DNA of 27,774 nucleotides from an uncultured Candidatus Woesearchaeota archaeon. Lineage in GTDB: Archaea; Nanobdellota; Nanobdellia; Woesearchaeales; B29-G15. The position numbers were made by a program, and so were the translations under genes. How positions within the stretch are numbered: the stretch's first letter is position 1; each line of letters opens with the position of its first letter. The stretch covers positions 1 through 27,774 of the forward strand of contig CAIWSB010000051.1 of NCBI GenBank assembly GCA_903915225.1. Reading direction: 5' to 3'. Below, piece by piece: positions 12,529 to 27,774 of the stretch. The notes under the pieces were generated by a model that was not told the DNA's origin, searched no databases, and was given only the letters and a program-made list of their open reading frames with translations.

Positions 12529-12768
12529 TTAGGTTATTGGGATACAGCAGACCTTGCTTTCCTTGCTGCATGATGTGCTGCCCATGGTTGCCTCGTTCGC
12601 AGCGCAGATTGGCTTGCATTCCCCACTGCGCGCCTGGCAGTCAGACACGCTTGAGGAGAAGATTCCAATGTTGCCTGAGAAAACCAAAACAAGAACAACA
12701 AGAACAATTACAACCAGGGCTGCAATCACTATGGTTTCAAGAGTCAAGCCCTGCCCACGCGAGTCCAT
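12529..12768 (-). CDS. Mini-pilin 1: class III signal peptide plus a six-cysteine C-terminal domain (79 aa)
   Basis: MDSRG|QGLTLETIVIAALVVIVLVVLVLVF followed by C-x6-C-x3-C-x11-C-x6-CC. Paralogous to the two upstream genes. Confidence 0.85.
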   Translation of the reverse strand: MDSRGQGLTLETIVIAALVVIVLVVLVLVFSGNIGIFSSSVSDCQARSGECKPICAANEATMGSTSCSKESKVCCIPIT

Positions 12769-12775
12769 ACTGGGC

Positions 12776-13045
12776 TTATTTCGTGGTGGTTGTTACTGGC
12801 TCTGGGGCGCTTATGCAGCAGACGGTTTTACCTGTTTCAGTACAGCCGGTAGCTAGGGTGAGTTTTATCTGTCCAGTACCGCAAGCATCCAAACACTGTC
12901 CTCCCCTTTCTGTGCACCCGCTCGCTGACTTTGAGAACGGCCCAAGGTTGCCTGTAAAGATTAATATTAGGACAACCAGGACTATAACGACAAGCGCTGC
13001 GATAACAATTGTGTCCAGCGTCAAACCCTGACCTTTGTTTTTCAT
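12776..13045 (-). CDS. Mini-pilin 2: class III signal peptide plus a six-cysteine C-terminal domain (89 aa)
   Basis: MKNKG|QGLTLDTIVIAALVVIVLVVLILIF followed by C-x6-C-x3-C-x12-C-x7-CC. A GAGGTGAT SD lies 7 nt upstream. Confidence 0.85.
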   Translation of the reverse strand: MKNKGQGLTLDTIVIAALVVIVLVVLILIFTGNLGPFSKSASGCTERGGQCLDACGTGQIKLTLATGCTETGKTVCCISAPEPVTTTTK

Positions 13046-13056
13046 AATTTATCACC

Positions 13057-13311
13057 TCAAGTTGTAGTGGGCGCAGTAAAGCAGCAGATGTTCGTGCCAT
13101 CGCACTTTGCCTCTGCTGCACTAAGCCCAATCTCTTTTGCAGGATCACAAGAAGCCTTGCAGACTCCTCCCCTTTCACCGCAAGCCCTCGCAGTTGCAGA
13201 GAAAGGCCCCATGTTGCCTGTGAAGATGAGTATAAGAACAACAAGAACAATTATGACCAGCGCAGCAATAACTATCGTGCTTATGGTCAAACCCTGGCCT
13301 CTTTTACTCAT
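13057..13311 (-). CDS. Mini-pilin 3: class III signal peptide plus a six-cysteine C-terminal domain (84 aa)
   Basis: MSKRG|QGLTISTIVIAALVIIVLVVLILIF followed by C-x6-C-x3-C-x14-C-x5-CC. The ATG at 13311 lies about 27 nt downstream of a TATA box, so the transcript is probably leaderless. The track start (TTG at 13329) falls inside the promoter. Confidence 0.85.
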   Translation of the reverse strand: MSKRGQGLTISTIVIAALVIIVLVVLILIFTGNMGPFSATARACGERGGVCKASCDPAKEIGLSAAEAKCDGTNICCFTAPTTT

Positions 13312-13331
13312 AGAGGGCAAAGGGAGCAAAG

Positions 13332-13348
13332 TAGTATATAAAATTTTC
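13332..13348 (-). promoter_or_regulatory. BRE/TATA promoter element (minus strand GAAAATTTTATATACTA), copy 1
   Basis: The TATA core TTTATATA is centred 27.5 nt upstream of the mini-pilin 3 ATG. An identical 17-mer recurs at 26379-26395. Confidence 0.6.
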
Positions 13349-13354
13349 GTATCC

Positions 13355-13849
13355 TCAGCTGCAGATTTCCAGCCGGACCTCGAGAGTCCTGCCTGTGAAG
13401 GGCGAGGGTAAGCTGTAAATCCCAGGCTTTACGCGGTTCGCGCACGTTAAGTCAGCAGCTGGAATCTTCCACATAACATCTGTTTGAACCCTGAAACTGA
13501 ACTGATAATCGTACTGCATTACCCCCAGTGTGTTGTCCAGGGCCAGCTGCACCACTCGCTTCGCCTCATCGCAGGGGCTGCTGCCCCCAGGGCATTTCAG
13601 CGAGCCGCCTGCAAGCCCTGGGCTTTCGCATGCCGCAAGAATGTCCCAAAGGTCCTGCCCGCTGCACTCAGTTGTAACCTTGAGGATGGCATCGATAAAG
13701 TTTGAAGCCATCTGGGTCCTCTCGTACTCAGCCTTTATGTTTATCTCATTTGCACTCGGCCGGGAGATTGAGATGTAGATAAAGAACCCGACCATTATCA
13801 AAAGCACTACAAAAACCAGGCCAAATATCTCCATCTGGCTGCGCCTCAT
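13355..13849 (-). CDS. Pilin-like protein with class III signal peptide (164 aa)
   Basis: MRRS|QMEIFGLVFVVLLIMVGFFIY followed by a soluble domain with 6 Cys. The start overlaps the upstream stop (ATGA), and a GGTGGTGA SD is present. Confidence 0.75.
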   Translation of the reverse strand: MRRSQMEIFGLVFVVLLIMVGFFIYISISRPSANEINIKAEYERTQMASNFIDAILKVTTECSGQDLWDILAACESPGLAGGSLKCPGGSSPCDEAKRVVQLALDNTLGVMQYDYQFSFRVQTDVMWKIPAADLTCANRVKPGIYSLPSPFTGRTLEVRLEICS

Positions 13850-14328
13850 CCCTGCATCACCACCACCTTGAGCACCCCAAGGTATATCTTGCTGCCATCC
13901 TGGAGGCTCACTGGCACAAAGAAACTGTTGGTTTGCGTCGACTTATCGGGCGAGAGTGAATATAGAGTCCAGGAAAGGCTAGGTGATGGGTAGATTCTTG
14001 TTACAGTAATATTCGAGTAACCAAACTGCTTAAAGTAATAGTCAGAGAAATAATGGCTCCCGCGCAGCCTGAGTGATTCAAATGCAATTACCTTCTGAAG
14101 GTCAAAGCAAGTATTCCGCATGTATTCCCCAGAGGTGCAAACAAACTCGGGTGCGTTCAGGGCTATGAGGGTTGTCTCAATGGCTCCCAGAGACTGAAAT
14201 TCTCCCACTTTTTGGTCAATATTCCTCTTTGATTCAACATAGTAGAATATAAGCCCAATGCCCACAAACACGATGAATATGAGCACAACAAAAATGGTTT
14301 CAAACATCTGGATTTGGGCCTTTCTCAT
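13846..14328 (-). CDS. Pilin-like protein with class III signal peptide (160 aa)
   Basis: MRKA|QIQMFETIFVVLIFIVFVGIGLIFYY. The ATG follows the upstream stop directly (TAAATG), and an AGGTG SD is present. Confidence 0.75.
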   Translation of the reverse strand: MRKAQIQMFETIFVVLIFIVFVGIGLIFYYVESKRNIDQKVGEFQSLGAIETTLIALNAPEFVCTSGEYMRNTCFDLQKVIAFESLRLRGSHYFSDYYFKQFGYSNITVTRIYPSPSLSWTLYSLSPDKSTQTNSFFVPVSLQDGSKIYLGVLKVVVMQG

Positions 14329-15333
14329 TTAGTACACCTGCGGCACAGACTCGTAGACGAGTATCTTGTTGGCCTCATTTAACCTCCTGATGAAGCCAAC
14401 AATCTGGGAGATTGCCAGGGAATGTGAGGCAGCCAGGGTGTTCATCTGCTGAATCTCCCCTTCAACATTTGTGTATAGGTTTGAGTATTTGGGGTTGGAT
14501 TGATAGCTATCCTTCAGCAGCTTCACTTTTTCCAACAGCACACCTGAGACCACCTCAACTGCAGTCATTGAGCTGTTGAAAACGCAGGAATAAATGTTAT
14601 AGTCTCCTGACACTAACGCACCCATGAGCTGCTCCTTTTTCAGCCAATTCCCATCGCCCACCTGCTCCCAGGCAACCCCGTTTTGCTTGTAGAACTTTAC
14701 GCTGCCGGAGATGTTGTCAGCATTCAAGGTTACCTCAACTGCCTTGAGCCTTTTCCCGCTGAAGCCAGGATTGGCCAAGGGCAGGTTTAGAAAAACAAAG
14801 ACGGTGTAATAATTATTCTCGTCAGGAACAGCCGCAGCGTCACTTGCGTATTGCACATTGACCTTTGCTGGCAAAAACTTCTTCAGGGTATTCATAAGGC
14901 TCTGGGACGGCCCGCTGTTGTCGTAAATCACGTTATACTTGGCTTCAGGCGTGGTTGCGAAAATAAAATTGCCAGCATAGAACGGCACAAACCAGGAGTA
15001 GGTCCAAACCTGCAGCCCTGTGCCCTTAAGCTCGGGGGGCGCGAAAAGCAGGTTTGTGGCGAGCCCTGGCCCCGAGACACCGCTTGACTTAAACTGGCTG
15101 CAGTCATACTTGAGGTCAAGGTTAGGGATTTCCATGAACTTGGATTCGCCCTCAACAACCCCTGTTGCTGTAATCCTGGTCTTGAGGTTTCCCAGTGAAG
15201 ACAGGGTTGAGGTCTTGCCTGAGATTTTTATCCACCCCAGGGAGAAGCCCACCACCAGTGACAGGATGAGAACACCCGCCACAAGAATAAATATCCAATT
15301 GAATTGTAGCTCAATTGCTCCCCGGCGTCCCAT
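14329..15333 (-). CDS. Pilin-like protein with class III signal peptide (334 aa)
   Basis: MGRRG|AIELQFNWIFILVAGVLILSLVVG. A GGGGTGA SD overlaps the upstream stop, 4 nt from the ATG. Confidence 0.7.
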   Translation of the reverse strand: MGRRGAIELQFNWIFILVAGVLILSLVVGFSLGWIKISGKTSTLSSLGNLKTRITATGVVEGESKFMEIPNLDLKYDCSQFKSSGVSGPGLATNLLFAPPELKGTGLQVWTYSWFVPFYAGNFIFATTPEAKYNVIYDNSGPSQSLMNTLKKFLPAKVNVQYASDAAAVPDENNYYTVFVFLNLPLANPGFSGKRLKAVEVTLNADNISGSVKFYKQNGVAWEQVGDGNWLKKEQLMGALVSGDYNIYSCVFNSSMTAVEVVSGVLLEKVKLLKDSYQSNPKYSNLYTNVEGEIQQMNTLAASHSLAISQIVGFIRRLNEANKILVYESVPQVY

Positions 15334-15337
15334 TAAT

Positions 15338-18300
15338 TCACCCCTTTTTCCCTTCGGGGTTGATTGTCACAGACACCTTTACATCAGTGGGTGCAGTTTT
15401 GACTTTATTTACAGATTTCTTCTCAACCTTTTTCACAATTTTAGTCTCAACAGGCTTTTTTTCAACTGCATTGAAGATCACAGGCACAGTTATTGTTACT
15501 GGCTTTTTCTCCACGGTGTTTTTCACAGGTTGAACCTTGGACTCCACCTTTTTCACTTGCTGAACCTTGATCTCAACCTTTTTCATGGGTTGTTGCTCCA
15601 CTTTCTTAATTGGCGCAGCCTTTTTAATAGGTTTGGGTTCGGCCTTCTTCACTGGTTCTTCTAGAGTCTCCTCAATTCTCCTTGGCTCAAATGCGCTGGG
15701 TTTTTTCACCTCAAACTCCCGCATTATTCGCTCCTTCATCTTACTTATGTCCTCACCCTGAACAGGCTTGGGCGGGGTCTTGATTACAGGTGCACCGTGA
15801 ATGAAGAACCTCGGCTGGACAGGCTGCGCAATCGGTCCTGTGGGCCTTGACAGAGTTCTGGCAGGCATCATGGGCACTGGCCTTCTTGCTGGCTGCTTTT
15901 TGGTTGCCTTATAGCCGAAGTAGCCCAACAGCACCAGTATTATCAGGATAATAAATATGATGAAAACAATATATAATTTACTAGATGGATGCGAGTTCTC
16001 ATCATGCGGGTCTGTCTTTCCATCTATTTCCGCCTTATCATTGTAGCCATCCCCATCTGTGTCTGCCTTATTGGGGTCAATCTTATACTGGGCGTATTTC
16101 ACCAACTCTTCAAAGTTGGACAGGCCGTCACCATCATTATCCTTTGCTGCATCAGTTGGGTCCTTTGGATTTAGCCCATTGGCAAGCTCCACTTCGTTTG
16201 GGATTCCGTCGCCATCTATGTCCGGATCACATGCATCTCCTTTCTTGTCATTGTCCATGTCCTCCTGTTTTGGGTTGGACACAGAAGGGCAGTTGTCCAC
16301 TGTATCCAGTACTCCATCCCCATCTGCGTCCGTGGAGGATGGGTTTCCTGAGCAGATATTATTGCTGAGGCATTGGCGTGAGAAACAGTCGTTTCCAGAC
16401 TCGCATCGTTTGTCAGCGTCACAGCGCTTTCCATAGTTCACTGCACAGCGCTTGCCACAGTCCACATCAGATTCATAATCTGGATCAAGTACGTTATTTG
16501 AGCAGATTGAAGCATATGATACTTCGCATTTACCTGTGCTTCCGCATGTGAGCCCAGTTGCACAGTCCTCACTGGCAGTGCAATTCTTTCCTGAAGAGCA
16601 TTTTGAGCATGAACCCCCGCAATCCACATCACTCTCACCAGGACCTTTCAGCTTATCGGTGCACGTTGATGTGGTGCATTTCTTGGTAGTTGGGTGGCAC
16701 AGCAAGCCAGATGCACAATCTGTGTCAACTGCGCAGGTCTTGCCAGCCGCACATTTGGGGCAATTCTTGCCGCAGTCAACATCTGTCTCCATACCGATGT
16801 CTAATAGCGAGTTTGCACAAACAGAAGGCTGTTTGGAGGTATCAACCGTGACACCATCACTCTTGCCAGCATAATAACTCCAGATTCCAGCCCCGTTCTG
16901 AGCCTTCACCTGGAAATAATAAGTCTTGCCGTTACTCAGCTTGAGATTGGTGAATGTTTTTTGCTTTGACTTTGTGAACCTCCAGTCCATTACTTTTGAG
17001 TCATTTCTCTTGTTGAATATGGCAACGCTGTAGCCATTGATTTTGGAGAGGGTATCATTTGAGCTCCAGCTACCAGTAAGCTCATCTGTCATCCATGTAT
17101 ACTCATCATTGGTGAGGTCCGTGGAATCATTAACCTGCGGCGTTGCAGGAGGAGTTGTGTCCTTTCCAGTCTGGATAGTGAGCGTGGGCTGGGCTGCAGA
17201 GGTTATGCATCTGACATAAAACGTGTAATCCCCGTCATTCTTACTCACATAGGCACTGTAGAGTGTCTCAGTTAGGTTTGTCATCTCATTTATTATCTGG
17301 TTCGCGTTCTCTGAGTAGAAGCACTTTGTTGCCCGGTTTGAAACAACCGAAAGCCCAATTGGCTTTATGCTCTTATTCACCCAGCGGGGTGTAGTGCTCT
17401 CTATTGTCAAGGGAAGATTCCTGTCCACCTGGACATCAACAGTTGAAACAGTACTCTTTGCCCCAACCGGGTTCTCGCAATAAACATAAAAGCTGTAAAC
17501 CTTGGTGTCGACTGAGAAATTAATCGTCTTGAAATGTTCCCTTCTGTAGTCGTTTGTGTCAAACCCAGGGAAAATGAACCTCATTTTTGCAGGCGTAGCA
17601 TAGCTTGCCTCCCTGTCCCATTTGCATATGGTGGGATCATCGCTAGTCACAACTAGAGAGGATGTGAATGGAACACGGTACACAATAGGCGGATGAGCTG
17701 AAACGTTTATAATCGGGGGGATTGCATCATATCCAATTGTGAAATTTGCAGCAGGGTTTGTTTTTCGCCCCATGGTATCATTGCAGATTACAAAAATGGT
17801 TACATTGCCCCCTTGTGAAAGCTCAGAGAATGCAGCCTTTTTGTGGTATAACCCCCAAACTCCGCCAGTGGTGTTCACAGTTAGGGGTTTCATTAGGTCA
17901 AATGGCACCTTTATGCTGTCCATATACCTACATCTGGCCATTTCGTCTGTCTTGAAAACTAGGTCAAATGGAACTGTACTGACAACTCCCCATTTTGGCT
18001 TAAATAAGGAAACTGAAGGTGCCCGGGCATTAACTGTAAAAGAATGGAGCCCGGATAAAGGTGGCCGCCCCGCGGAAGTTGCTGTCGCTTGGATTGTGTA
18101 AAGCCCGTCTTTGGGGGCAAACATGCGGGTTTTCTTGTAAGTCCTGTCGTTAACCCTGGTCATGGTGAGGTTAATTGGCTTATCAAGCCCAATCAGCTGC
18201 ACGAGGAATTTTGTGGGAGCTTGAATGAAGGTTACAGTTATATTAAATGTATCCTTTGTAATAACCGAGCCCTCATTGGGAGTGGCCGGCTGGGTGACTA

Positions 18301-18646
18301 TAATTACATCTTTAGTCTGGTTGTTCACTTCAAACTCAAAGGAAGCATAATTCGCCATCTCATTCCCTATGTCATCCCGGGCCTTGACCTTTAGCACATA
18401 ATCACCGTTGTTAAGCTGGGGGGAATTCAGCACAAAGTAATTCCTTGCCTCTGTAACAATTCTGCTCTTGACGTCAATTGCAGCCCCTGTAGCCGGTTGG
18501 ATATATGCCTCTGTGATAGTTACCGGGTCATTTTCAGATGTAAAATCAATAGTAAATGAGGGGGTATTGCTTGAGACAACTACATACGCGCCTGCTGGGC
18601 TAGCAAGTAAGATAAGCAACAAAAGCAAAATTGTTGTTTTTTTCAT
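15338..18646 (-). CDS. Giant modular surface protein: Sec signal, Ig/Fn3-like domains, 3x 8-Cys repeats, TSP3 calcium-binding repeats, TM anchor, Lys-rich cytoplasmic tail
   Basis: Start set at the ATG at 18646 (MKKTTILLLLLILLASPAGA), which has an AAGGTGA SD; the track start at 18655 is a GTG. Fn3-like GKTYYFQVKAQNGAG. Three repeats with E[ST]DVDCG..C..C. D-x-D-x-DGDG motifs (DADGDGVLD, DIDGDGIPN, DNDGDGLSNFEE, DTDGDGYND). TM helix LYIVFIIFIILIILVLLGYFGY. Confidence 0.85.
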   Translation of the reverse strand: MKKTTILLLLLILLASPAGAYVVVSSNTPSFTIDFTSENDPVTITEAYIQPATGAAIDVKSRIVTEARNYFVLNSPQLNNGDYVLKVKARDDIGNEMANYASFEFEVNNQTKDVIIVTQPATPNEGSVITKDTFNITVTFIQAPTKFLVQLIGLDKPINLTMTRVNDRTYKKTRMFAPKDGLYTIQATATSAGRPPLSGLHSFTVNARAPSVSLFKPKWGVVSTVPFDLVFKTDEMARCRYMDSIKVPFDLMKPLTVNTTGGVWGLYHKKAAFSELSQGGNVTIFVICNDTMGRKTNPAANFTIGYDAIPPIINVSAHPPIVYRVPFTSSLVVTSDDPTICKWDREASYATPAKMRFIFPGFDTNDYRREHFKTINFSVDTKVYSFYVYCENPVGAKSTVSTVDVQVDRNLPLTIESTTPRWVNKSIKPIGLSVVSNRATKCFYSENANQIINEMTNLTETLYSAYVSKNDGDYTFYVRCITSAAQPTLTIQTGKDTTPPATPQVNDSTDLTNDEYTWMTDELTGSWSSNDTLSKINGYSVAIFNKRNDSKVMDWRFTKSKQKTFTNLKLSNGKTYYFQVKAQNGAGIWSYYAGKSDGVTVDTSKQPSVCANSLLDIGMETDVDCGKNCPKCAAGKTCAVDTDCASGLLCHPTTKKCTTSTCTDKLKGPGESDVDCGGSCSKCSSGKNCTASEDCATGLTCGSTGKCEVSYASICSNNVLDPDYESDVDCGKRCAVNYGKRCDADKRCESGNDCFSRQCLSNNICSGNPSSTDADGDGVLDTVDNCPSVSNPKQEDMDNDKKGDACDPDIDGDGIPNEVELANGLNPKDPTDAAKDNDGDGLSNFEELVKYAQYKIDPNKADTDGDGYNDKAEIDGKTDPHDENSHPSSKLYIVFIIFIILIILVLLGYFGYKATKKQPARRPVPMMPARTLSRPTGPIAQPVQPRFFIHGAPVIKTPPKPVQGEDISKMKERIMREFEVKKPSAFEPRRIEETLEEPVKKAEPKPIKKAAPIKKVEQQPMKKVEIKVQQVKKVESKVQPVKNTVEKKPVTITVPVIFNAVEKKPVETKIVKKVEKKSVNKVKTAPTDVKVSVTINPEGKKG
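15401..15658 (-). repeat. Degenerate Lys/Val/Pro-rich coding repeats in the cytoplasmic tail
   Basis: Protein sequence: KKAEPKPIKKAAPIKKVEQQPMKKVEIKVQQVKKVESKVQPVKNTVEKKPV...VEKKPVETKIVKKVEKK. The plus-strand DNA repeats the unit CTC[AC]ACCTTTTTCA at least three times. Confidence 0.7.
16352..16819 (-). repeat. Three tandem coding repeats of an 8-cysteine module (about 48 aa each)
   Basis: Track aa 613-660, 665-710 and 718-768 share the spacing C-x13/14-C-x3-C-x2(7)-C-x5-C-x5-C-x4/5-C-x5/6-C and an [ED][ST]DVDCG core. Confidence 0.8.
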
Positions 18647-18651
18647 TATGT

Positions 18652-21600
18652 TCACCTTAACCCAATTACTGGTGCTACTGGTGGAGTCCTGTCAAGGATA
18701 ATCTCATAGGGCTCTATTGCAGTTGCGCCAAGCCTATTTGTGGCATTGAAAACCACCCGGTTCATCCCGTCAATCAAATAGACATATTTCGTGAATGGGA
18801 CATTATGCCCGCGCCCCGGAGGTATAATGTAAGTATAAGGTGGGGTTGAACGAATTGAGATAAAGGCAAGTGTGACATTTGAGCCAGTGTCCTCTATGTA
18901 TCCACTTGCCTCCTGCTGTTGTAGCCTCACCTTGAATGTATTCCTTGGCCAAGATGCCACAACAATTCTTGGGGCCTGCCTCTCAACCCTGAAGCTGGAG
19001 AATTCCTGCAGCTTATTTCCCCTGGTGTCAATGCTGGTAATCTTTGCTGTGTAACGACCATCTGACATGAGGCTGCTTGGCCTGAATACAAGTGTAGTGC
19101 TATCTTTCCAAACAAGTGTTCCTGAGACGTTTAATGATTCCCAGAAGAGCTGTATTTTCGAACCAGTAGAGTTCCTGTTCAACGTTACAAACTCGCTCAC
19201 TGGATGGAAAAACACAGTGACATTCCTCACAATAGCCCTCACTGCCCCTTCAGGGGGTATCACATCAAAGGTGGGTGCACCTGAGACAAAGGTGAAGCTT
19301 TGGATATCAGAATCAGGGCTGGGGTTCTCTGCTAGGTCATACGCCCTAACAAAAACCTTGTAATCCCCTTGAGCGTGAAGAATAATCGGAGTAGAGCTCA
19401 GGTTGAACTTATTCGCTGAGTTTACAAGCGCAGTGGCAACCTGCTCATACGGCCCCGAGCCCAGCTTGAGGTATACCTTCAAAGTTGTTCCTGCTTCTGC
19501 TGTGCCTGAGAGCTTGAGGCGGTTTGTATCTGTGTAAGATGGGATTGCATTGAGGATTGGTTTAGCAGGGTGTTCTGTATCAAGGTAAACCCTTATTCTA
19601 GATTGCCTCGCAGGAAGGTTTTCTGCAACAACTTCTATTGTGAACTCTTTCCATCCCTGGATGTTTGGTAGGTTAATTGTTTCTTCTCGGGTCATACTCT
19701 TTAGTGGAGGGCTGCCTGTGGTGTAAACATAGAACTGCTTTACAACCGCTCCATTGATATCCTTAAGTATAATGCTATTTATCCTCTCAAATGAGTCCAC
19801 ATAAATCCTGAACTTTGGTGTGGTGTAATTGATGTATGAGTTGTTCCCGGGGTAATAAAGGAAAATCCCTATCCCGCCTATATTGTGGGTTGAGAGTTTG
19901 ATGTTTGCGGTGTTAATAACCTCAACGTTCTTGCTGGGGTCAACTGCGAAATACTTTATTGTGTTATCACCTAAGCTAAGCTTGCCCTGTGAGATAAGGT
20001 CTTCAACCTTCATGGAGGCCTTTGTCATGTTGAAATATGAGCCTGGGTCTGAGTTAATGCCCTTATATCCAAACGTCCCGCATTCTGTTGAACCGGTGTA
20101 GGAGCACAGAAGTAGCTGGTATCCCCTTCCCAAACTTACTGGTCTTTCAACTCCCTGGGACTCGGTTTTGTCAAGAACACTAAAAGTTATGTTATCGTTA
20201 GTGAAGAGCCACACAGTAGAAGCCAAGGTGGAATGTGGAGGGTACCTGTCACGCTGGCACGCAAGGTCAGTTTCCCCGCAGTCAGGGGAACCGTCGCCAT
20301 TTGCATCCTTAACACAGTGTGTTTTAGTTGGTGCCTGAGCACATGCCCTTATTCCCCCATCACAAAGGCTGCTCCCAGTAGTTATCTGATTACTGTTGCC
20401 AAGTTCTATTGCCGCAGCACAATCTGTTTGGAGGGTAACCCCCTCGCAGGTGAAATCCCTGCAGGTTAAGCCGCCTGGTCCACATGGGAAATTCTCAACC
20501 TCCAATGCATTGCGCTTCTCTTGACTGCACCTGTTAAAGATAAAATTGTGGGCATCCAGGCTTTGCACAGCGCTAGTACCCTGGGATTCGCAGTATTTGC
20601 AATTGTCCCTTCCTTTGGTAACACAAACCCCCATGCCCAGGGCCTGGTTCGTCCAGTTCCAATTGCAGTCTAGAACACCTGCTGCTCGGCAATTGTTTGC
20701 CTCGCATGCCTCTTCTGATTTGTAATCATAGCAATCCATCAGCGGGTTGCAATCATAGCACTTATTGACCAAAGTTTGCGACTTGTCATAAAAGCAATAC
20801 TTGGGCTCCCCATTCTTTGTTTCACACTGATCCTCTGAGGTGGTAAACATTCCAAATGGCTGCACACCCTCACAGGGGCCTCTCGCATAGCATTGTGGCT
20901 GGTATGTGCTATCAATCACGCAAGTCTTGCCAGTTGCAGAGCAGTTTCTGTTTAAGTGCGCCTTGTTGCTTGCATTGCATGTATAAGAATTGAAGAAATA
21001 AGAGCTAAATGTGGTGTTAATCCATGCGCGGAGATTGGCTGGGGTTATTCCCAGGATGTTTTGGAAATAGTAAGAGAAGCTTGGCCGCTCTGAAGATACC
21101 AGCGTAAAGTAGTTTGGGGCAACGCAGAATGGCCTGCTGTCAAAGACGCCCCAGCACAGGGTATCCCCCAGTTTTATGTTAACCCTTCTAGAAAAGTCCA
21201 CATTCCTGTTCCCAGAAAGAAGGTAAGTTGCTGTGACATTATATTGGTATTCCTTCCCCCACTTCAAGATTGAGCCGTTATCCACATAACTCAAACCAAC
21301 GTAGTCCTTTACAATTTCCTGGTGGCCCAGTGTACCTATCTCTTTTCTTTCAATCCTGTAGAATTTCGGTCGGTAGCCGCAATTTGGGGCAGAAAAGCTC
21401 AAGTCAACAAGCTTCTGGCCCTTTCTAGGGGAAGCCAGAACAAACGGGGCAGGGTCAGGGCACACAGAGGGGTCAATATAATCAGGTAATGGTTCCTGAG
21501 GGAAACTGGCATTGTACCTCTCGCAATAGTCCCTGTCGCAAGGGCCTTGCATCTGTGAGTCATTAGTCCATATTCCCTTCTTGCATGCTGGCTCAACTCT

Positions 21601-21891
21601 TCTTAGAGGCAATGGATTACAACAGCAGCCAATGGTGCAGTTGTCTACTCGGGTGCAGTCAACTCCTGGCTTGAAATACCTCTCAACACAGGCCTGTTGA
21701 TCAGGGGCCCCTTCAATACCATATGCGGTGGGGTTATCTGGGCAGCATTGGGCTTGCGTTACAGGCAATAAGCAGACTATCGTCTTGGCGTTGAGGCAAC
21801 ACCCAGTTGCATCCTCTGCCCTCACAGCCACTGCCGCGCAGGCAATGGCAAGTAGCACCGATACCAAAAAAATCGCATTTGATAGTCTCAT
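18652..21891 (-). CDS. Giant secreted cysteine-rich protein (1079 aa) with an Ig-like C-terminal half
   Basis: Sec-type signal (AIFLVSVLLAIACAAVAVRA). About 44 Cys fall in aa 31-545 and only 2 after that. The C-terminal half is beta-rich with Big-like boundaries (DTEHPAKP, LDRTPPVAP). Many N-x-S/T sequons. A GGTGG SD precedes the ATG. Confidence 0.85.
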   Translation of the reverse strand: MRLSNAIFLVSVLLAIACAAVAVRAEDATGCCLNAKTIVCLLPVTQAQCCPDNPTAYGIEGAPDQQACVERYFKPGVDCTRVDNCTIGCCCNPLPLRRVEPACKKGIWTNDSQMQGPCDRDYCERYNASFPQEPLPDYIDPSVCPDPAPFVLASPRKGQKLVDLSFSAPNCGYRPKFYRIERKEIGTLGHQEIVKDYVGLSYVDNGSILKWGKEYQYNVTATYLLSGNRNVDFSRRVNIKLGDTLCWGVFDSRPFCVAPNYFTLVSSERPSFSYYFQNILGITPANLRAWINTTFSSYFFNSYTCNASNKAHLNRNCSATGKTCVIDSTYQPQCYARGPCEGVQPFGMFTTSEDQCETKNGEPKYCFYDKSQTLVNKCYDCNPLMDCYDYKSEEACEANNCRAAGVLDCNWNWTNQALGMGVCVTKGRDNCKYCESQGTSAVQSLDAHNFIFNRCSQEKRNALEVENFPCGPGGLTCRDFTCEGVTLQTDCAAAIELGNSNQITTGSSLCDGGIRACAQAPTKTHCVKDANGDGSPDCGETDLACQRDRYPPHSTLASTVWLFTNDNITFSVLDKTESQGVERPVSLGRGYQLLLCSYTGSTECGTFGYKGINSDPGSYFNMTKASMKVEDLISQGKLSLGDNTIKYFAVDPSKNVEVINTANIKLSTHNIGGIGIFLYYPGNNSYINYTTPKFRIYVDSFERINSIILKDINGAVVKQFYVYTTGSPPLKSMTREETINLPNIQGWKEFTIEVVAENLPARQSRIRVYLDTEHPAKPILNAIPSYTDTNRLKLSGTAEAGTTLKVYLKLGSGPYEQVATALVNSANKFNLSSTPIILHAQGDYKVFVRAYDLAENPSPDSDIQSFTFVSGAPTFDVIPPEGAVRAIVRNVTVFFHPVSEFVTLNRNSTGSKIQLFWESLNVSGTLVWKDSTTLVFRPSSLMSDGRYTAKITSIDTRGNKLQEFSSFRVERQAPRIVVASWPRNTFKVRLQQQEASGYIEDTGSNVTLAFISIRSTPPYTYIIPPGRGHNVPFTKYVYLIDGMNRVVFNATNRLGATAIEPYEIILDRTPPVAPVIGLR

Positions 21892-21901
21892 TCAAACCAC
21901 C

Positions 21902-23698
21902 TTAGCATGGAATCACGACTCTCGCATTTGTGCTGTTTGATGCCCCAAAGGAATCTGTGACAGAGAAAGTAATATTGTATACGCCCGTATTATTAGTAAA
22001 CCAAACGTTCCACCAATGGGTTATGCCTGTAGTATACCTTGTACCTATATTGTAATCAAGTGTTGGACCATGGAAGTCGAGGGTAAGGTTGAGCGGATCC
22101 TTATACGAATCCTCTAGGTTAGTGGTCTCAACCTTGTAGACAAACCAACCCGATACTGGGTCTTCCCCTGTGCATGAAACCCTAACATTGCTTGGGGGAG
22201 AATTAAAAAGCTTGATTGGGACGACAACCGTGTCGTTATAGTTGGGGTTATCTCGCTCAAAGAACTTTAAACTTAGCGTTGTTTGCATACCGTTATCAAA
22301 TTCAGACTCATTGTTGTATTCGCAGGCCTGGCCCCAATCACAGTTTGATGTCTTGAAATCCCAGTCAATGGGATCATCATCAGGGTCATACGCCGGGCGG
22401 TAATTCCCTTGGGCGCCAGTTGAGTTTTTGTAGGCATTAAAAATGCAGGCAACTGCTTGCCTGTTCATCTGCTTAAAGACCCTGGCAGAGAGAACGTTTA
22501 AAGGAGTGTCAAAAACCCCACCGCAATTGGGGAGGTTAAGATAGGATTTCAGTCCGGGCACTGCACTAAGGTTTCTGTAGTGAATGTAAGCCGCAGAGGG
22601 TGGAGAATTAGGGATTGCAGCGAAAAATCTGTAAGTCTCGTATTCCGCCTGGTTCTGTTTTGGAATCCAGGACTGATTGTCCTCAAAGACCACTACATCC
22701 ACCTTTTTTTCATCCACGTCCCGTATAAGGTTGATTAAGCTAATGTTTTCCGACGAAACAGTGGAACTCAGATTATAACTGTAATCCTCTGCCTCTTTTC
22801 TCAAAATATCGTTCACGTATTTATATATTTTTCCAAACCTCACCCTCGAACTTATTGAGAATTTGTTTAGCAAAGTTGATTTGCCAGATTCAGTTACGTT
22901 ATTTTGAACAGTCAGGGGGCACATCATCTCAACCGAGGTGAACTCCTCTGAGAAGGTTGGATTTACCGACAAATTTCCAATCCGCTTTACAACCAGCCCC
23001 TTTTTCCTCAATTCCTCAAAATTCAGGCATTTGGTAATATTTCTGGCAATAAACTCTGCCAATGATGCCCGGATTTTCATCTTTGGGGACATCAAGGGTT
23101 GGATCCAACCAACCTGGCGAGCTACCCCTTCGTTCTCATAAAGCCCAGGGAGGTTTAGCTGGTTGAGCATTCTCGCATTGCTGACCATGTTCCCTGATAA
23201 ATCATGAGCCATTGAATCGCCAACCTCGGGGCCGAAAGCAATGATTTCTGAGTTCTCTCCCTCAAATGGGAATGTAATTGATGGGCAGCGTTCATAGGAG
23301 AATAAATCAGTTCCAATATCTCTAGGACAACATGAGAGTCCATAGGTTAATGTCCCTGGAAAGATAGAGTACCATATCCATCTACCCCCATAATCTAAAG
23401 CAAAATCCTCTGTTTTGAAGGAGTCCGGCACCGTGCCCCCTTGGCTTTCGTATATTACCCCCCCTTGCTTGCCCAGGAGTATTAAACCATTTAGAGTGGA
23501 GTCCATAAGGCATTGCTGAACGAACTCAATAACTGGCTCTACCTTGGGCGGCAAGTCTGGCAGCTGCGGGCTCTTCAGGAAAGGGAGTCTTAAGGCAATG
23601 ATTAATCCTGCACCCAGAATCACAACAACTGCAATTATTAGGAAGAAAGAGACCTGGGCCCTTTTATCTCCAAGCGCCTCATTTTCTTCATTGCTCAC
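21902..23698 (-). CDS. Large pilin-like protein (598 aa) with class III signal peptide and a PKD/Ig-like C-terminus
   Basis: GTG start with a GAGGTGG SD about 5 nt upstream. N-terminus GDKRA|QVSFFLIIAVVVILGAGLII. The C-terminal YNITFSVTDSFGASNSTNARVVI resembles the last strands of a PKD domain. Confidence 0.75.
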   Translation of the reverse strand: MSNEENEALGDKRAQVSFFLIIAVVVILGAGLIIALRLPFLKSPQLPDLPPKVEPVIEFVQQCLMDSTLNGLILLGKQGGVIYESQGGTVPDSFKTEDFALDYGGRWIWYSIFPGTLTYGLSCCPRDIGTDLFSYERCPSITFPFEGENSEIIAFGPEVGDSMAHDLSGNMVSNARMLNQLNLPGLYENEGVARQVGWIQPLMSPKMKIRASLAEFIARNITKCLNFEELRKKGLVVKRIGNLSVNPTFSEEFTSVEMMCPLTVQNNVTESGKSTLLNKFSISSRVRFGKIYKYVNDILRKEAEDYSYNLSSTVSSENISLINLIRDVDEKKVDVVVFEDNQSWIPKQNQAEYETYRFFAAIPNSPPSAAYIHYRNLSAVPGLKSYLNLPNCGGVFDTPLNVLSARVFKQMNRQAVACIFNAYKNSTGAQGNYRPAYDPDDDPIDWDFKTSNCDWGQACEYNNESEFDNGMQTTLSLKFFERDNPNYNDTVVVPIKLFNSPPSNVRVSCTGEDPVSGWFVYKVETTNLEDSYKDPLNLTLDFHGPTLDYNIGTRYTTGITHWWNVWFTNNTGVYNITFSVTDSFGASNSTNARVVIPC

Positions 23699-23749
23699 AG
23701 GACCACCTCTTTGAGGGAAAAAGGCAGGTTTAGAATATTTAAAGGTTTC

Positions 23750-23868
23750 GCCGGCCAGACAGAACCTCCAGAGAGGTGGCTGGCCGTGTCCTCAGACACC
23801 ATCCACGCCTCGCAAGGTGTGTGGCCGCGCCTGATGCACGGCGTTAGCCACGCTGAGGCACGCGCCGA
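23750..23868. other. GC-rich (about 67%) hairpin-dense intergenic element; candidate structured RNA or 3' UTR
   Basis: Nested hairpin CGGCCAG...ACCTC-CAGA-GAGGT...CTGGCCG (23752-23786). Further hairpins: GTGTC-CTCA-GACAC (23786-23799), CCAC/GCCT-CGCA-AGGT/GTGG (23803-23824) and GCGCC-N8-GGCGT (23827-23844). Flanking sequence is roughly 40-45% GC. Confidence 0.35.
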
Positions 23869-26340
23869 TCACGGCTTAAACTTAGAAGTCAAATCTGCCC
23901 AATGCTCCATTAGTAGGCTCGGAGCCTCACGCTCGTCCAGGACAACGTAATTATTGCCATTCTTCTTGCAGTTGAGGCGCCTGTCCAAGGCAAGGGTGTA
24001 ATTATTTACATAACGGCATATGTCCACATTCCAGTTTTGATAATCAATAAGGAGGTAATGCTTTGGCTTATTGCTGACTGCGTCAAACCTGCTGTTCTCA
24101 AATATGCCCTCAACTTTTTGGCCTCCTCCGAAATCTGCCAGGTAAAGCCTGGAGAACATTTTTGAGGTGTTTAAAACATTGAATTTAATCATGAGCCCGG
24201 AGGCTGACTGGAACTGGATTTGCCCTCTAATAATGAGGTCGCTCAATGTTACAATTGGGTCCTTAATCAAATCCCTGAAGAGCTGCCAACTAGATGTTGA
24301 ACTGCCCGTTGTAATTCCTGTTTTGCTAAATATAACAAGCCCAAATGTTGGGTTATACACTGCATTTGCCCCGCACGCCCCGTAATCCCAAACTCCATGA
24401 GCGCTCGGAGTAGCGCAACCGCTCACACCCAGCACATTTGCAAGCCCATTTGTGGGGTTCTCAAATGGTACGTTCAATGAAGTGCCCAGCATTACATTGC
24501 CTGTGGTTTGGTCTTTCAGAACGCAGAAATTATTCACGCAGTTAAATGTGCGGTTGTTGAGCTTGCAGTTCTTTGCGAGATAATTAAGCACCGGCTTGCC
24601 CATTATCTGGTAATTAAGATCATTAAGAGATATTGAATAGTCATCACAGAATATTTTGAATTTTGCGCCGTTCTCAACCCCAGCCAAAGCCAACATTTTT
24701 GTGGCAACGAGTGATGTGCGGGACTGCCACTTGTTGGCATTGCAGTAGTAGTCCAAAATGTATTGGCCATCACCGATGCATTGGGGTTTTTTATCTGAGA
24801 AATAAGTTTCTGGCTTGTTGTTGCCAGAATAACTGAAGTTCCCCACAAAGCATTGCTTGTCCTTGTCTGGGCAATACCCCTTCAGCTTGTAGTCCCATGT
24901 TACCGAAAGGTTCGCTATCATCCATGCGCCATCCTGGCAGCGGTTGACTTTGCCATTAGCGTTCTTCAAAGTATACATGTTCAGGGGCTCATCGATCTGG
25001 TTCTCAATGCATTGCTTGCCGTTCCAACACCATGTTGATGGGCAGCAGCCCGATTTACCGGAGAGGTCAAACTTTTCAGTATCTATCTGTTCTCCGGTTT
25101 TTATTGACTCATTTAGAATGTTAAGCCCCTCAGGCGCAGTATCACTAAGCCACGTGTTAAATCGGGGCTCGCAGTAGTAGTTGCACAGGTTAGTACAATC
25201 CACAGCAGGGGTTCCCAATTGATAATAGGGCGCTTCATCCAGGCAAAACGTAAAGTTGCCCTCGCAGTAGAGAAGCCTCTTGTTTAGGTACCTGGTGGCA
25301 TTTACGCCCTTAATCCATTGGTATGTTGTGCCATCCTTAACGCACACATTTACGGTATCAAAAACAGTTCCAAGGTCTGCGTCACCATCATCACCACAGC
25401 AATACCCGCCCTTTGTGAGTGGTGCGATTGTATCCTTCTTACCCTGCAGCCAAGCAAATCCGCACTTTGAGCTTCCACAGTCACCATCATCGCAGCACTG
25501 GAGAGAAGGGGATTCTGCTTTCTTCCAGTCATAGTAACTGCCCATATTTTGGCACGTCATTAGGGTTAGCCCGGCACATGTGGGGGGGCTTCCTGGCTGA
25601 CACTTGTTTGTTGGGGGCACTGTAGGGGGAACTGTGTTTGATCCTCCAGTGCATGAGGTTGTGTCAAATTTACAGTCTGCACTGCAAGCGAGGGTTCCGC
25701 CTGTAAAGCCTCCCGATAGAGTTAGGCAAGTCTTGCCATTTAGGTTTGTGCCATCGCAATCCTCTCCGGAGTCTACGACATGGTTTCCGCAAAGAGCATT
25801 GGGTGTGTAATCATAACCCCAAATGTCGCTGTTTCCTTGCGCAACTGTTTCGCTATCATCGCATGCGGATGTTGTTCCATCAATTACTATTTTGTACTTC
25901 GGGCCAGGGTTTGAGATGATTGTTTTTTTGGTTAAAGAGGCGCAAGCAAACGTGCCGCAGTCTTTGCATTCAATTACCAGGTTGTTGCTCTCGTTGTAAT
26001 AATTAACTACTTCATTTGGGAAGTCGCAAGTGAATGGACTAGCAAGGCCTCCACCGTCAACGTTGTTGTACACAACCAAAGTGCACATCCCTGCCGCATC
26101 TAGGTCTTTGTACTCACTGGAGCAGCAGCATTGGCTTCCAAGGCCACACGCACCGCCCGCATCATAATGTATCCATCCATGGGCACATCCGCTTGCGAAA
26201 GTTGAGCATTTTCCAATTGAAAAGTTGTTGCTCTTGCATGTGGTTTGGCAAGGCCCAACATCAATTGAGTAACCAAAGGCCAATGGGGAAAAAAGCAGAA
26301 ATGTGATAGCCAGAATTAAGAGAGTTTTATTCTTGGACAT
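23869..26340 (-). CDS. Secreted cysteine-rich surface protein, paralog B (about 823 aa)
   Basis: Start set at the ATG at 26340 (MSKNKTLLILAITFLLFSPLAFG), which has a GGTGA SD. The track TTG at 26367 is too close to the TATA box. About 52 Cys. Contains CGNHVVDSGEDCDGTNLNGKTC...CSADC, which resembles the CGDG-x-EECDDGN cysteine repeat. Paralogous to the next gene. Confidence 0.85.
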   Translation of the reverse strand: MSKNKTLLILAITFLLFSPLAFGYSIDVGPCQTTCKSNNFSIGKCSTFASGCAHGWIHYDAGGACGLGSQCCCSSEYKDLDAAGMCTLVVYNNVDGGGLASPFTCDFPNEVVNYYNESNNLVIECKDCGTFACASLTKKTIISNPGPKYKIVIDGTTSACDDSETVAQGNSDIWGYDYTPNALCGNHVVDSGEDCDGTNLNGKTCLTLSGGFTGGTLACSADCKFDTTSCTGGSNTVPPTVPPTNKCQPGSPPTCAGLTLMTCQNMGSYYDWKKAESPSLQCCDDGDCGSSKCGFAWLQGKKDTIAPLTKGGYCCGDDGDADLGTVFDTVNVCVKDGTTYQWIKGVNATRYLNKRLLYCEGNFTFCLDEAPYYQLGTPAVDCTNLCNYYCEPRFNTWLSDTAPEGLNILNESIKTGEQIDTEKFDLSGKSGCCPSTWCWNGKQCIENQIDEPLNMYTLKNANGKVNRCQDGAWMIANLSVTWDYKLKGYCPDKDKQCFVGNFSYSGNNKPETYFSDKKPQCIGDGQYILDYYCNANKWQSRTSLVATKMLALAGVENGAKFKIFCDDYSISLNDLNYQIMGKPVLNYLAKNCKLNNRTFNCVNNFCVLKDQTTGNVMLGTSLNVPFENPTNGLANVLGVSGCATPSAHGVWDYGACGANAVYNPTFGLVIFSKTGITTGSSTSSWQLFRDLIKDPIVTLSDLIIRGQIQFQSASGLMIKFNVLNTSKMFSRLYLADFGGGQKVEGIFENSRFDAVSNKPKHYLLIDYQNWNVDICRYVNNYTLALDRRLNCKKNGNNYVVLDEREAPSLLMEHWADLTSKFKP

Positions 26341-26378
26341 AAGCTCACCGGTTTTTATATATCCCAAAAATCAGATTA

Positions 26379-26395
26379 TAGTATATAAAATTTTC
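26379..26395 (-). promoter_or_regulatory. BRE/TATA promoter element (minus strand GAAAATTTTATATACTA), copy 2
   Basis: Exact 17-nt match to 13332-13348. The TATA core is about 45 nt upstream of the ATG at 26340, which would give an ~18-nt leader containing the SD. Confidence 0.55.
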
Positions 26396-26439
26396 TATAA
26401 GAGGTCATCCACCCTACTCCACTTGGTTCCATCTGGGAA

Positions 26440-27774
26440 CTATTTAAACTTAGAAGTCAAATCTGTCCAATGTGCCATTAGGAAGCTAGGCGATTGCCTA
26501 GAGTCTAGCACAACCTGCGTTGTGCCTGATTTGTTGCAGTTTTCCCTATCTAGTCCCGGGGCGTAGCTGTTCACAAATCCACATATATCTTCGCTGAACC
26601 CTTCGTATTTTATTAAGAGGTAATATCTCGCCGCGCTGACAGTTTCATCATATCTGTTTTCCTCAAATATCCCTTGCACTTTTTTTGTGCCGTAGTTGGC
26701 CACAAAAACCTTGCTCATCATTTTTGAGCTGTTGAGCACATCAAACTTCAGAAGTGTGGCTGAAGAACGGAACTTGATTTGCCCGTGGAGTATAAGCTGG
26801 CTTAATGTCTCAATCGGTGCGCTAAGGAAATCCTTGAATATAGTCCAACCATTTGAGGAATCCAGTTGTATGCTTGGGCTGCTGTAAATGATTATTGAAA
26901 CATTCGGGTTGTAGATTGCCTTTGGAGATGCCAATAGGTAACCCCACGGCCCGCTCGTGCGTGCAAAACTGCAGCCAGGTGTTAGGTTGAATGCAGGCCC
27001 TATTCCCTGAGAGCTGCAGGGATTGACATTAAGCGATGCCCCTATCCAAGTTTTGGGGGTGTCCAAGCTGCGCATCACGCATACATTGTTGGCACAGGCC
27101 ACGGTCTGATTGTGGATTTTGCAGTTTTGGCCAAGGCGTTCCCAAACAGCACCGCCAACAACCGAGTAATCAAAGTCATTGAAAGCAATGGTATAAACAT
27201 CACAAAACAATTTCAGTTTGGCATCGGTGCCACCCAGCTCAAGCATCTTTGCGGCCAACAGCGATGTTCTTGAAATCCATTTGGAATGGTTCCCGCAATA
27301 ATAGTCAAAAATATATTGTCCCGGGCCAATGCACTGCGGCTTTTTGTTTGTAAAATATAAATCAGGCTTGTTGTTGCTGGCGTAGGTAAAGTTGCCAACA
27401 AGGCACTGGCTGTCCTTGTTAGGGCAATAGCCTTTAAACCTGCCACCCCAGCTGATAGCTTGTTTCGCATCAACCCAGTTGCCATCCTGGCAGCGGTGCT
27501 CCTTTTTTGTAGAATCATTGAGCACGTAAATATTCAGCGGCTCATCGATCTGGTTTTCAATGCACTTTGTTCCATTCCAGCACCAGGATGAGGGGCAGCA
27601 TCCGGACTTGCCTGCAAAATCAAACTTTTCAGTATCAATTTGCTCTCCAGTTTTTACAGGCTCGCTCAGGATGTTTAGTCCTTCAGGAACTGTATCACTA
27701 AGCCACTTATTGAACTGCGGCTCACAGTAGTAATTACATTTGTTGGTGCAATGGTCAGAAACGTTAAGGAGATA
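26440..27774 (-). CDS. Secreted cysteine-rich surface protein, paralog A (5' end truncated by the window edge)
   Basis: The frame stays open to position 27774. Upstream of the track's GTG 'start' (27525) it still aligns with paralog B: CTNKCNYYCEPQFNKWLSD...GCCPSSWCWNGTKCIENQIDEPLN against CTNLCNYYCEPRFNTWLSD...GCCPSTWCWNGKQCIENQIDEPLN. Confidence 0.85.
   Translation of the reverse strand, partial: YLLNVSDHCTNKCNYYCEPQFNKWLSDTVPEGLNILSEPVKTGEQIDTEKFDFAGKSGCCPSSWCWNGTKCIENQIDEPLNIYVLNDSTKKEHRCQDGNWVDAKQAISWGGRFKGYCPNKDSQCLVGNFTYASNNKPDLYFTNKKPQCIGPGQYIFDYYCGNHSKWISRTSLLAAKMLELGGTDAKLKLFCDVYTIAFNDFDYSVVGGAVWERLGQNCKIHNQTVACANNVCVMRSLDTPKTWIGASLNVNPCSSQGIGPAFNLTPGCSFARTSGPWGYLLASPKAIYNPNVSIIIYSSPSIQLDSSNGWTIFKDFLSAPIETLSQLILHGQIKFRSSATLLKFDVLNSSKMMSKVFVANYGTKKVQGIFEENRYDETVSAARYYLLIKYEGFSEDICGFVNSYAPGLDRENCNKSGTTQVVLDSRQSPSFLMAHWTDLTSKFK

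Follow-up and report, generated by a model that had tools for sequence, protein, structure and literature searches.

The minus strand of a 27,774-bp contig from an uncultured Candidatus Woesearchaeota archaeon (GenBank assembly GCA_903915225.1, contig CAIWSB010000051.1) carries a real, conserved, and lineage-wide cluster of pilin and adhesin genes that is unannotated. The entire contig was analysed and is referred to below as the window, and statements on genome content are limited to it. The cluster includes seven proteins with N-termini of the class III signal type, three of which are very small and are designated mini-pilins, two halves of a giant surface protein, and two cysteine-rich paralogs. 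Conserved motifs, conserved domain content, and a gene order maintained in ~80 species characterize the cluster, which is a member of no named family and represents a lineage-specific form of a kind of system that is already known. We consider it probable, although well short of certain, that the locus is the structural (pilin and adhesin) cluster of a type IV filament (TFF) system characteristic of Woesearchaeota/Nanoarchaeia, with the machinery encoded elsewhere. Woesearchaeota are among the most widespread uncultivated archaea and are thought to depend on other cells; to our knowledge, it is not known which cells these are or how contact with them is made.

The open reading frame (ORF) map shows an unbroken run between positions 27774 and 12529, in which every gene is located on the minus strand (Table 1). 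The intergenic gaps, in the order from 27774 to 12529, are 99, 170, 10, 5, 4, 0, -4, 43, 11, and 7 nt, and GGTG-type Shine–Dalgarno-like sites precede most of the starts. A motif scan was performed over 718 candidate starts of ORFs of at least 50 amino acids (aa) in six frames; a hit had to show [KR][GAS][QA] among its 20 initial residues and a hydrophobic stretch after it. The scan returned nine starts, which correspond to exactly seven genes, all on the minus strand between 12529 and 23698: the mini-pilins of 79, 89, and 84 aa and the proteins of 164, 160, 334, and 598 aa. The same scan found no class-III-like N-terminus in any other ORF of the window. The hydrophobic stretch after the [KR][GAS] junction is ~20 residues long in the seven products, and the first residue after the junction (+1) is Gln in six of them and Ala in the 334-aa protein. 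The original prediction, made from the letters of this DNA, had described a single-strand locus in a small-genome archaeon, with these same seven class-III-signal proteins, two tandem Cys-rich paralogs, a TSP3/8-Cys giant, and no assembly machinery in view. All of these points were recovered, the source organism being a small-genome DPANN archaeon, and the synteny in related genomes that it had proposed to check was found to be fixed in 84 loci.

The N-terminal motif was assessed for conservation across orthologs from ~80 species. Gln at +1 is present in 67 of 72 members of the 164 family, in 70 of 77 of the 160 family, in 26 of 28 of the 598 family, in 50 of 53 members of a further family designated n0 (described below), and in 92 of the 143 mini-pilins recovered from related loci. 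A Glu residue is conserved at +3 in the 164 family (67/72) and at +6 in the 160 family (68/77), and QFNW is invariant in the 334 family. Homology between the 164 and 160 families is confined to the first 32 residues (hhalign probability 93%). A common N-terminus joined to unrelated ectodomains is the usual pattern of pilins, which counts for the pilin reading. The conservation of [KR][GAS]-Gln and of the Glu residues also favors a pilin-type signal, because a plain membrane anchor would not need such a motif. That the N-termini of the seven proteins are real class III-type signals rather than generic anchors is supported by this pattern of sequence conservation.

Relatives of the cluster were collected through the 334-aa protein. 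A word-indexed search with this protein recovered only six proteins, and a pattern scan of GTDB species genomes based on the alignment of these six yielded 114 relatives, from which 80 loci were kept. The 334-aa relatives occur in at least 114 GTDB species, almost all of which are Woesearchaeota/Nanoarchaeota (DPANN). The 80 scan loci (L005–L084) and four others (L001–L004) gave a set of 84 loci, in which ORFs were called and searched with iterative profiles started from each window protein. Matches, with the window included, were found in 76 sequences for the 164 family, 74 for the 160 family, 72 for the giant, 45 for the 1079-aa half, 36 for the 823 family, 32 for the 598 family, and 56–57 for the mini-pilins. 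The gene order is near-invariant: a Cys-rich protein, a 598-type protein, the giant, n0 (in 66 loci), the 334, 160, and 164 proteins, and one to six mini-pilins. The fixed order in the 84 loci, together with one to six tandem mini-pilin genes, counts for a filament. The literature searches made returned no paper describing this locus, and the window proteins and ten mini-pilin relatives, subjected to an exact look-up, are unnamed in every source. About 30 of the GTDB records that carry the same woesearchaeal module (L007, L008, L011, L013, and ~26 others) are titled "uncultured Methanosarcinales archaeon", and L061 is titled "Aminicenantes bacterium"; these titles look mis-assigned. One of these records is a 969-kb contig (CAZJXP010000001.1). 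The cluster is carried as well by JACPJQ010000002.1 (289 kb) and CAZRPY010000001.1 (298 kb).

The mini-pilins belong to a very large family of at least 3,455 clusters. An exhaustive profile search with the three window paralogs and one relative as the query, against clusters at 50% identity, returned 3,455 clusters at E ≤ 1e-3 and 938 at E ≤ 1e-10, with full-length matches. The K-[GAS]-Q signature occurs in 129 of the top 147 matches, a head with exactly six Cys residues in 124, and a CC pair in 145. The family has no Pfam model, and this candidate major pilin family comprises thousands of unannotated sequences. Mini-pilin genes, 119 in number and mostly arranged in tandem, were found in 52 of 82 distinct sequences (81 loci and the window).

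A sequence motif, AAATTTTATATAC, is present in three copies in the window (two exact and one with one mismatch), compared with 0.04 expected by chance. All three copies are on the minus strand, 22–41 nt upstream of the starts of the first mini-pilin, the 823-aa gene, and the DegV gene. The motif is probably the transcription factor B recognition element (BRE)/TATA consensus of the organism and would serve as a promoter. Its position before the first mini-pilin suggests that the mini-pilins have their own transcription start, as expected of a major subunit. A GC-rich stretch of 126 nt (23745–23870, minus strand) in the 170-nt gap before the 598-aa gene can form a long hairpin (-57 kcal/mol) and was rejected as a structured element, as the hairpin is no better than those of shuffled sequences (z = -1.58). 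A TATA-like CTTTAAATATTC comes after this stretch.

The 334-, 160-, 164-, and 598-aa proteins and n0 are minor-pilin candidates. The protein n0, of ~160 aa and with the class III N-terminus K-[ASG]-Q-I-x-G-Q-V-F, is encoded between the giant and the 334 gene in 66 related loci, and is missing from the window (junction 15333–15338) and from its closest relative (L001/L005). The position of the 598-type gene between the Cys-rich protein and the giant is conserved. Six Cys residues are each conserved in at least 90% of the members of the 164 family, and two are near-invariant in the 160 family; such conserved Cys residues in the ectodomains fit extracellular, disulfide-stabilized proteins. The AlphaFold2 model of the 334-aa protein, computed from six sequences (predicted local distance difference test [pLDDT] 73, predicted template modeling score 0.72), has a helix (residues 8–55), itself of low confidence, followed by a mixed globular domain. 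The single-sequence model of the 160-aa protein (pLDDT 47) is confident solely for the N-terminal helix (residues 2–48) and was dropped as a query for fold searches. Models with an N-terminal helix followed by a globular part were counted for the filament reading, as far as predicted structures may be. Sequence and profile searches of the PDB with the 164-, 160-, 823-, 598-, and 1079-aa proteins gave no match, and a search with the concatenated 334, 160, and 164 alignment as the query gave zero scoring matches among 8,000 candidates.

The 1079- and 1102-aa proteins align to the N- and C-terminal halves of one protein in 26 of 39 relatives. A total of 42 giants reach 1,400 aa or more, and the 39 relatives are those for which BLAST matches to such giants were obtained. 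The single giants of relatives have 1,600–1,850 aa, of which the 1079-aa protein covers residues 1 to ~880, and the split (window 18646–18655) is common to the window and its closest relative. The original prediction had counted four giant proteins; two of these are thus the halves of one protein, and the other two stand as Cys-rich paralogs. The latter share 54% identity over 445 aa between the 823-aa protein and the truncated upstream copy, which is cut by the contig end.

At its C-terminus, the 1102-aa protein has a transmembrane helix followed by ~190 residues of Lys-rich tail, and it is therefore membrane-anchored. A transmembrane helix with a K/R-rich tail is present in 44 of 75 members of the giant family. 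Pfam searches with the 1102-aa protein revealed TSP_3 (1.5e-11; 44.2 bits, cut-off 25), TSP3_bac (1e-6; 28.9 bits, cut-off 25), Y_Y_Y (3e-7), and a sub-threshold fn3 match (24.1 bits, compared with the 25-bit cut-off), and those with the 1079-aa protein revealed Big_13 (7.7e-9). Residues 600–770 of the 1102-aa protein (window 16337–16849, minus strand) form three tandem modules of ~50 aa with eight Cys residues each, following the pattern ..E[ST]DVDCG..C..C..G..C....DC......C.., and these modules match nothing in Pfam, even at E ≤ 1. The Cys content is 6.3% in the 823-aa protein, 4.4% in the 1079-aa protein, and 2.9% in the 1102-aa protein. The position of the 823-aa family in the cluster is constant among the loci carrying the family; the window copy has no match in Pfam or the PDB, and two of its relatives carry the concanavalin A-like lectin domain Laminin_G_3 (1.5e-17). 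No Pfam or NCBIfam match to the PilY1/PilC beta-propeller was found in the 823-, 1079-, 1102-, and 598-aa proteins or in 19 and 30 family members. The adhesin-type domains and the C-terminal anchor of the giant count for a pilin and adhesin cluster.

In the mechanism that we propose, a class III signal peptidase (FlaK/EppA-type, encoded elsewhere) would cut after [KR][GAS], so that the mature proteins begin (+1) with Gln or, for the 334-aa protein, with Ala. A FlaI/FlaJ-type ATPase and platform, also encoded elsewhere, would pull the hydrophobic helices from the membrane into a filament. The tandem six-Cys mini-pilins, transcribed from their own TATA-like promoter, would be the major (bulk) subunit, and the 164-, 160-, 334-, and 598-aa proteins, with n0 in relatives, would be minor pilins of low abundance with a part in priming or capping it. 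The split giant and the Cys-rich paralogs may act as adhesins or envelope partners, which would provide binding specificity for a partner or prey cell, or passage through the envelope. As a conserved set of surface proteins from 114 or more species, the cluster makes a good candidate for the means by which these cells grip partners, and it offers targets for metatranscriptomes, proteomes, imaging antigens, and complex modeling.

Four points weigh against this assignment: (i) no secretion ATPase, TadC/FlaJ-type platform, or A24-family peptidase is encoded in the window, and no secretion ATPase, platform, or peptidase is encoded within 10 kb in any of the 84 related loci; (ii) curated pilin and archaellin models (Pfam Class_IIIsignal, Pilin_N, and Arch_flagellin; NCBIfam) give no threshold match to the seven window proteins, and no curated pilin model reaches threshold with the 65, 67, and 123 members of three families; (iii) a Foldseek search of the PDB with the 334-aa model found no partner among solved pilins (best E 0.015, TM ~0.2); and (iv) the assignment of major and minor subunits is drawn from size, copy number, and the promoter-like motif only. 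Sub-threshold matches to pilin models recur among the family members (TadE 5, Flp1_like 16, UpsA 2, and a prepilin-type model 13), and the recurrent weak Flp1_like and TadE matches of the N-termini may be a slight indication of pilins.

Neighboring genes were considered as candidates for the machinery and rejected. The multi-pass membrane proteins, considered as peptidases, are M50-like proteins, SecDF, a glycosyltransferase, and an AI-2E transporter, and the P-loop proteins, considered as secretion ATPases, are an SMC/Rad50-type ATPase and a 403-aa protein with an AAA-looking GPPGTGKT sequence, as judged by motif. The genes flaI, flaJ, and flaK are reported in most Woesearchaeota metagenome-assembled genomes (MAGs; PMC11606122, PMC5994134), and nanoarchaea have ATPases whose cognate pilins could not be found (Makarova et al., PMC4858521). 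As the present cluster shows, surveys centered on ATPases miss large pilin-only clusters.

Many related loci have a second block after the mini-pilins, comprising ~ten more proteins with a class-III-like N-terminus, and the extended cluster ends at an RPA-like gene. One second-block family, in 5–6 loci, carries the N-acetylmuramoyl-L-alanine amidase domain Amidase_3 (1.4e-16), and another, in 11–14 loci, has a domain resembling Peptidase_M15/VanY (best 4.1e-12) with the motif HxxGxAxD...ExWH. A PDB search with one member of the latter family gave no sequence match. The window has no second block, and its 598-aa protein has no peptidoglycan hydrolase domain.

These enzymes bear on the possibility that the pilin-like proteins build a short envelope-spanning pseudopilus, as in type II secretion, the Sulfolobus bindosome, or Com-like systems, rather than a long adhesive fiber. 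It would serve in the export, anchoring, or presentation of the giant at the cell surface and, in relatives, would do the same for the peptidoglycan hydrolases fused to pilins. The cluster is dominated by diverse low-copy pilin-like families (five here and about a dozen in relatives), it is tightly linked to a membrane-anchored giant, and the Amidase_3 and M15/VanY enzymes carry a class III N-terminus like the substrate-binding proteins of the bindosome (bioRxiv 10.64898/2026.04.22.720090). However, one to six very small pilins in tandem, with a promoter-like element of their own, are as expected of a filament subunit in high copy number, the very large mini-pilin family shows conservation over the full length, and no secretion-specific component was found. 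We regard a pseudopilus as unlikely.

The lack of linked machinery would also be explained if the N-termini were uncleaved type II signal anchors that hold disulfide-rich ectodomains beside the giant, in a static envelope or S-layer-associated complex without a filament. The absence of a peptidase or ATPase from all 84 loci, the unmatched curated pilin families, and the 334-aa fold, which has no pilin counterpart, agree with such a complex. By contrast, the near-invariance of [KR][GAS]-Gln and of Glu at +3 or +6 across unrelated ectodomains is hard to explain for a simple anchor, and flaK-type peptidase genes have been reported in most Woesearchaeota MAGs (PMC11606122). A complex of this kind is distinctly unlikely in our judgment.

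The cluster and the second block may be read more boldly. The pilin-type hydrolases in the supercluster of relatives suggest bacterial cell walls as a possible target of the apparatus, and the two blocks together could represent a new archaeal subtype of type IV filament for attacking bacteria, composed of a mini-pilin filament, adhesins, and enzyme-pilins, with a prokaryotic head fold of the beta-defensin type as a side claim. Giant calcium-binding adhesins would tip or decorate the mini-pilin filament, and the pilus would both hold on to a bacterial host and breach its peptidoglycan wall. Predation on bacteria by Woesearchaeota, with a pore-forming toxin and a murein transglycosylase as the tools, has been proposed (PMC9723730; see also PMC12352652) in papers that make no mention of pilins. 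If true, this proposal would supply the missing contact organ for the proposed "vampiristic" Woesearchaeota lifestyle; the pilin-fused hydrolases would mark bacteria, and not archaea, as the targets of the apparatus and make a predatory lifestyle directly testable. We give it a slim chance.

The side claim concerns the mini-pilin heads, the Cys residues of which are spaced in the window as C-x6-C-x3-C-x11-14-C-x5-7-CC with a conserved GGxC, which is the pattern of beta-defensins. Mini-pilins 1 and 2 strictly fit the beta-defensin spacing C-x4-8-C-x3-5-C-x9-13-C-x4-7-CC, and mini-pilin 3 fits it loosely (third gap 14); among 215 six-Cys members of the family, 56 have the strict spacing and 49 more the loose one. 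In a profile comparison with the PDB, the six Cys residues align with those of human beta-defensin 106, and with big defensin 2rng the hydrophobic N-terminal part aligns as well. Weak matches to Defensin_beta_2 (20), Defensin_beta (15), Defensin_big (8), and Inhibitor_I68 (10) recur among 123 members, the best at 2.4e-4 (Defensin_beta_2).

On these grounds, the mini-pilins could be toxins of a defensin-like kind, either released or targeted to the membrane, that act on partner or prey cells and are not filament subunits, and the terminal CC, the Gly before the second Cys, and a hydrophobic N-terminal part before a six-Cys domain, as in big defensins, would agree with this. However, the PDB matches are not significant (E 0.2–0.3), and the window mini-pilins (E 0.03–0.07) are far below the Pfam cut-offs. 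A plant (cis-)defensin-like model is also matched by 23 of the 123 members; matches to both defensin types indicate that the Cys pattern alone probably drives the hits. The head of these archaeal proteins is acidic (mean net charge ~-2), whereas defensins are cationic, and their hydrophobic part is a class III signal and helix; the pilin-type K-[GAS]-Q signal is shared with the neighboring genes. The insignificant E-values, the acidic head, and the strict spacing in only about a quarter of the six-Cys members point to a disulfide knot that resembles defensins rather than to homology, and convergence on a small disulfide knot would be the simplest reading of the alignments. A toxin is very improbable. 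An archaellum was rejected, as archaellin and FlaF/FlaG are unmatched, and so was a hamus, since the locus shows nothing that suggests the hooked fiber of a single large subunit that characterizes hami.

Downstream of the mini-pilins, the window encodes RNase P Rpr2, a fragment of diphthamide synthase, and a DHH-like protein, whose DHH match falls below the Pfam cut-off. The left half of the window contains ordinary genes, namely those of an S8 protease, a major facilitator superfamily transporter, DegV/DAK2, ribosomal protein S15, an asparagine synthase, and a toxin of the ParE type. The secreted S8 subtilase (24–1844, plus strand) has a long Cys-rich C-terminal extension with a TSP3-like DSDNDGTPD motif and is another disulfide-rich surface protein on this contig. 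It is followed by a 239-aa protein (1801–2520, plus strand) with a signal peptide and the C-terminal end ..LVLEVKF, for which no Pfam or PDB match was found; its terminal Phe recalls bacterial outer-membrane barrel proteins, which would be odd for an archaeon. The diphthamide-synthase fragment (11936–12184, minus strand) is an ORF of 82 aa that matches just positions 1–55 of the Diphthamide_syn model, and its 83-aa counterpart in the closest relative indicates a conserved short gene, not a sequencing break. An ORF of 98 aa precedes and overlaps the gene of the ParE-type toxin (87 aa, E 2.4e-8), and the two are probably a toxin–antitoxin pair (6671–7214, plus strand). The Rfam scan of the window gave one tRNA only.

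Table 1. Genes and promoter-like motifs of the cluster in the window, and pilin-type hydrolases of related loci (locus handle before the position).
Feature	Position	Strand	Remarks
Cys-rich secreted protein, C-terminal 444 aa	26440..27774	-	Paralog of the 823-aa protein; frame open to the contig end, where the gene is cut
BRE/TATA-like motif AAATTTTATATAC	26381..26393	-	41 nt upstream of the 823-aa gene ATG
823-aa Cys-rich secreted protein (52 Cys)	23869..26340	-	Sec-type signal peptide; cluster head gene; candidate adhesin
598-aa large pilin-like protein	21902..23698	-	Class III signal ..GDKRA|QVSFF.., then globular part and immunoglobulin (Ig)-like C-terminus
1079-aa N-terminal half of giant	18652..21891	-	Sec signal, Cys-rich region (47 Cys), Big_13 Ig-like domain
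1102-aa C-terminal half of giant	15338..18646	-	Ig-like/Y_Y_Y/fn3, three 8-Cys modules, calcium-binding TSP3 repeats, C-terminal transmembrane helix, cytoplasmic Lys-rich tail
334-aa pilin-like protein	14329..15333	-	Cluster hallmark; N-terminus RG|AIELQFNWIF
160-aa minor-pilin candidate	13846..14328	-	KA|QIQMFETIF
164-aa minor-pilin candidate	13355..13849	-	RS|QMEIFGL; six near-invariant Cys
BRE/TATA-like motif AAATTTTATATAC	13334..13346	-	23 nt upstream of the first mini-pilin ATG
Mini-pilin 3, 84 aa	13057..13311	-	KRG|QGLTISTIV, hydrophobic helix, head C-x6-C-x3-C-x14-C-x5-CC; candidate major subunit
Mini-pilin 2, 89 aa	12776..13045	-	Head C-x6-C-x3-C-x12-C-x7-CC, Thr-rich tail
Mini-pilin 1, 79 aa	12529..12768	-	Head C-x6-C-x3-C-x11-C-x6-CC
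AAATTTTATATAC copy with one mismatch	6029-6041	-	Upstream of the DegV gene
Amidase_3 pilin-type proteins	L080:10160-11155; L077:16189-17106; L020:16824-17753; L010:16131-17015; L078:10671-11522		
Peptidase_M15/VanY pilin-type proteins	L035:17429-18487; L027:17769-18806; L039:19190-20341; L048:18626-19783		~10 further loci

Comparison of the woesearchaeal locus with known systems revealed likenesses of plan. In the bacterial FimU-PilVWX-PilY1-PilE complex (M. xanthus, PMC7541494) and in the type II secretion pseudopilins GspH-K, four or five graded pilin-like proteins are likewise encoded in a compact operon beside a large calcium-binding adhesin, apart from the ATPase. Their supposed role is to prime the filament, which consists of a small major pilin, and to cap it. 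By contrast, no similarity of sequence or fold was found, the signal is of the archaeal type rather than the bacterial G|FxxxE with N-methylation, the PilY1 (Neisseria_PilC) domain was not detected, and the woesearchaeal giant is anchored to the membrane by its C-terminus. The likeness to a PilY1 tip complex would hold by analogy only.

The Epd pilus of Methanococcus maripaludis (TFF system 1; EpdA-E, EppA) resembles the locus in its class III signal, in Gln at +1 after [KR]G, in a very small major pilin, for which the mini-pilins are the candidates here, and in several minor pilins, all of which are required for piliation in the Epd system. EpdE, too, is small. However, the 11-gene Epd cluster includes an ATPase, two platform proteins, and a peptidase, none of which lies within 10 kb in the 84 loci here; the Class_IIIsignal/DUF361 Pfam family of the Epd pilins is unmatched by the window proteins; and the Epd pilins are not Cys-rich, nor does the Epd locus have a giant TSP3 protein. 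TFF system 1 has been reported in some DPANN archaea (bioRxiv 10.64898/2026.04.22.720090).

Thermoproteales (clades 4B/4D/4E) have type IV pilus loci that share the overall plan of the woesearchaeal locus (Makarova, Koonin and Albers 2016, PMC4858521). These encode a Cys-rich S-layer-like protein anchored by a single C-terminal transmembrane helix, a large protein with a signal peptide that is an adhesin or a minor pilin, and several small, Cys-rich minor pilins. The woesearchaeal locus differs in its origin from another, mesophilic lineage (DPANN), in the absence of a sequence match to the described families, in its six-Cys mini-pilins, TSP3 repeats, and 8-Cys modules, which are not described there, and in a much larger pilin-like set, which in relatives amounts to about a dozen families. 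Subsystem 4E is described as having its machinery and its pilins encoded at separate sites (bioRxiv 10.64898/2026.04.22.720090). The claim of the original prediction that no known locus matches therefore holds for the curated pilin families but not for the overall plan, for which the Thermoproteales loci and the split subsystem 4E provide a precedent, and this precedent counts for a pilin and adhesin cluster with its machinery encoded elsewhere.

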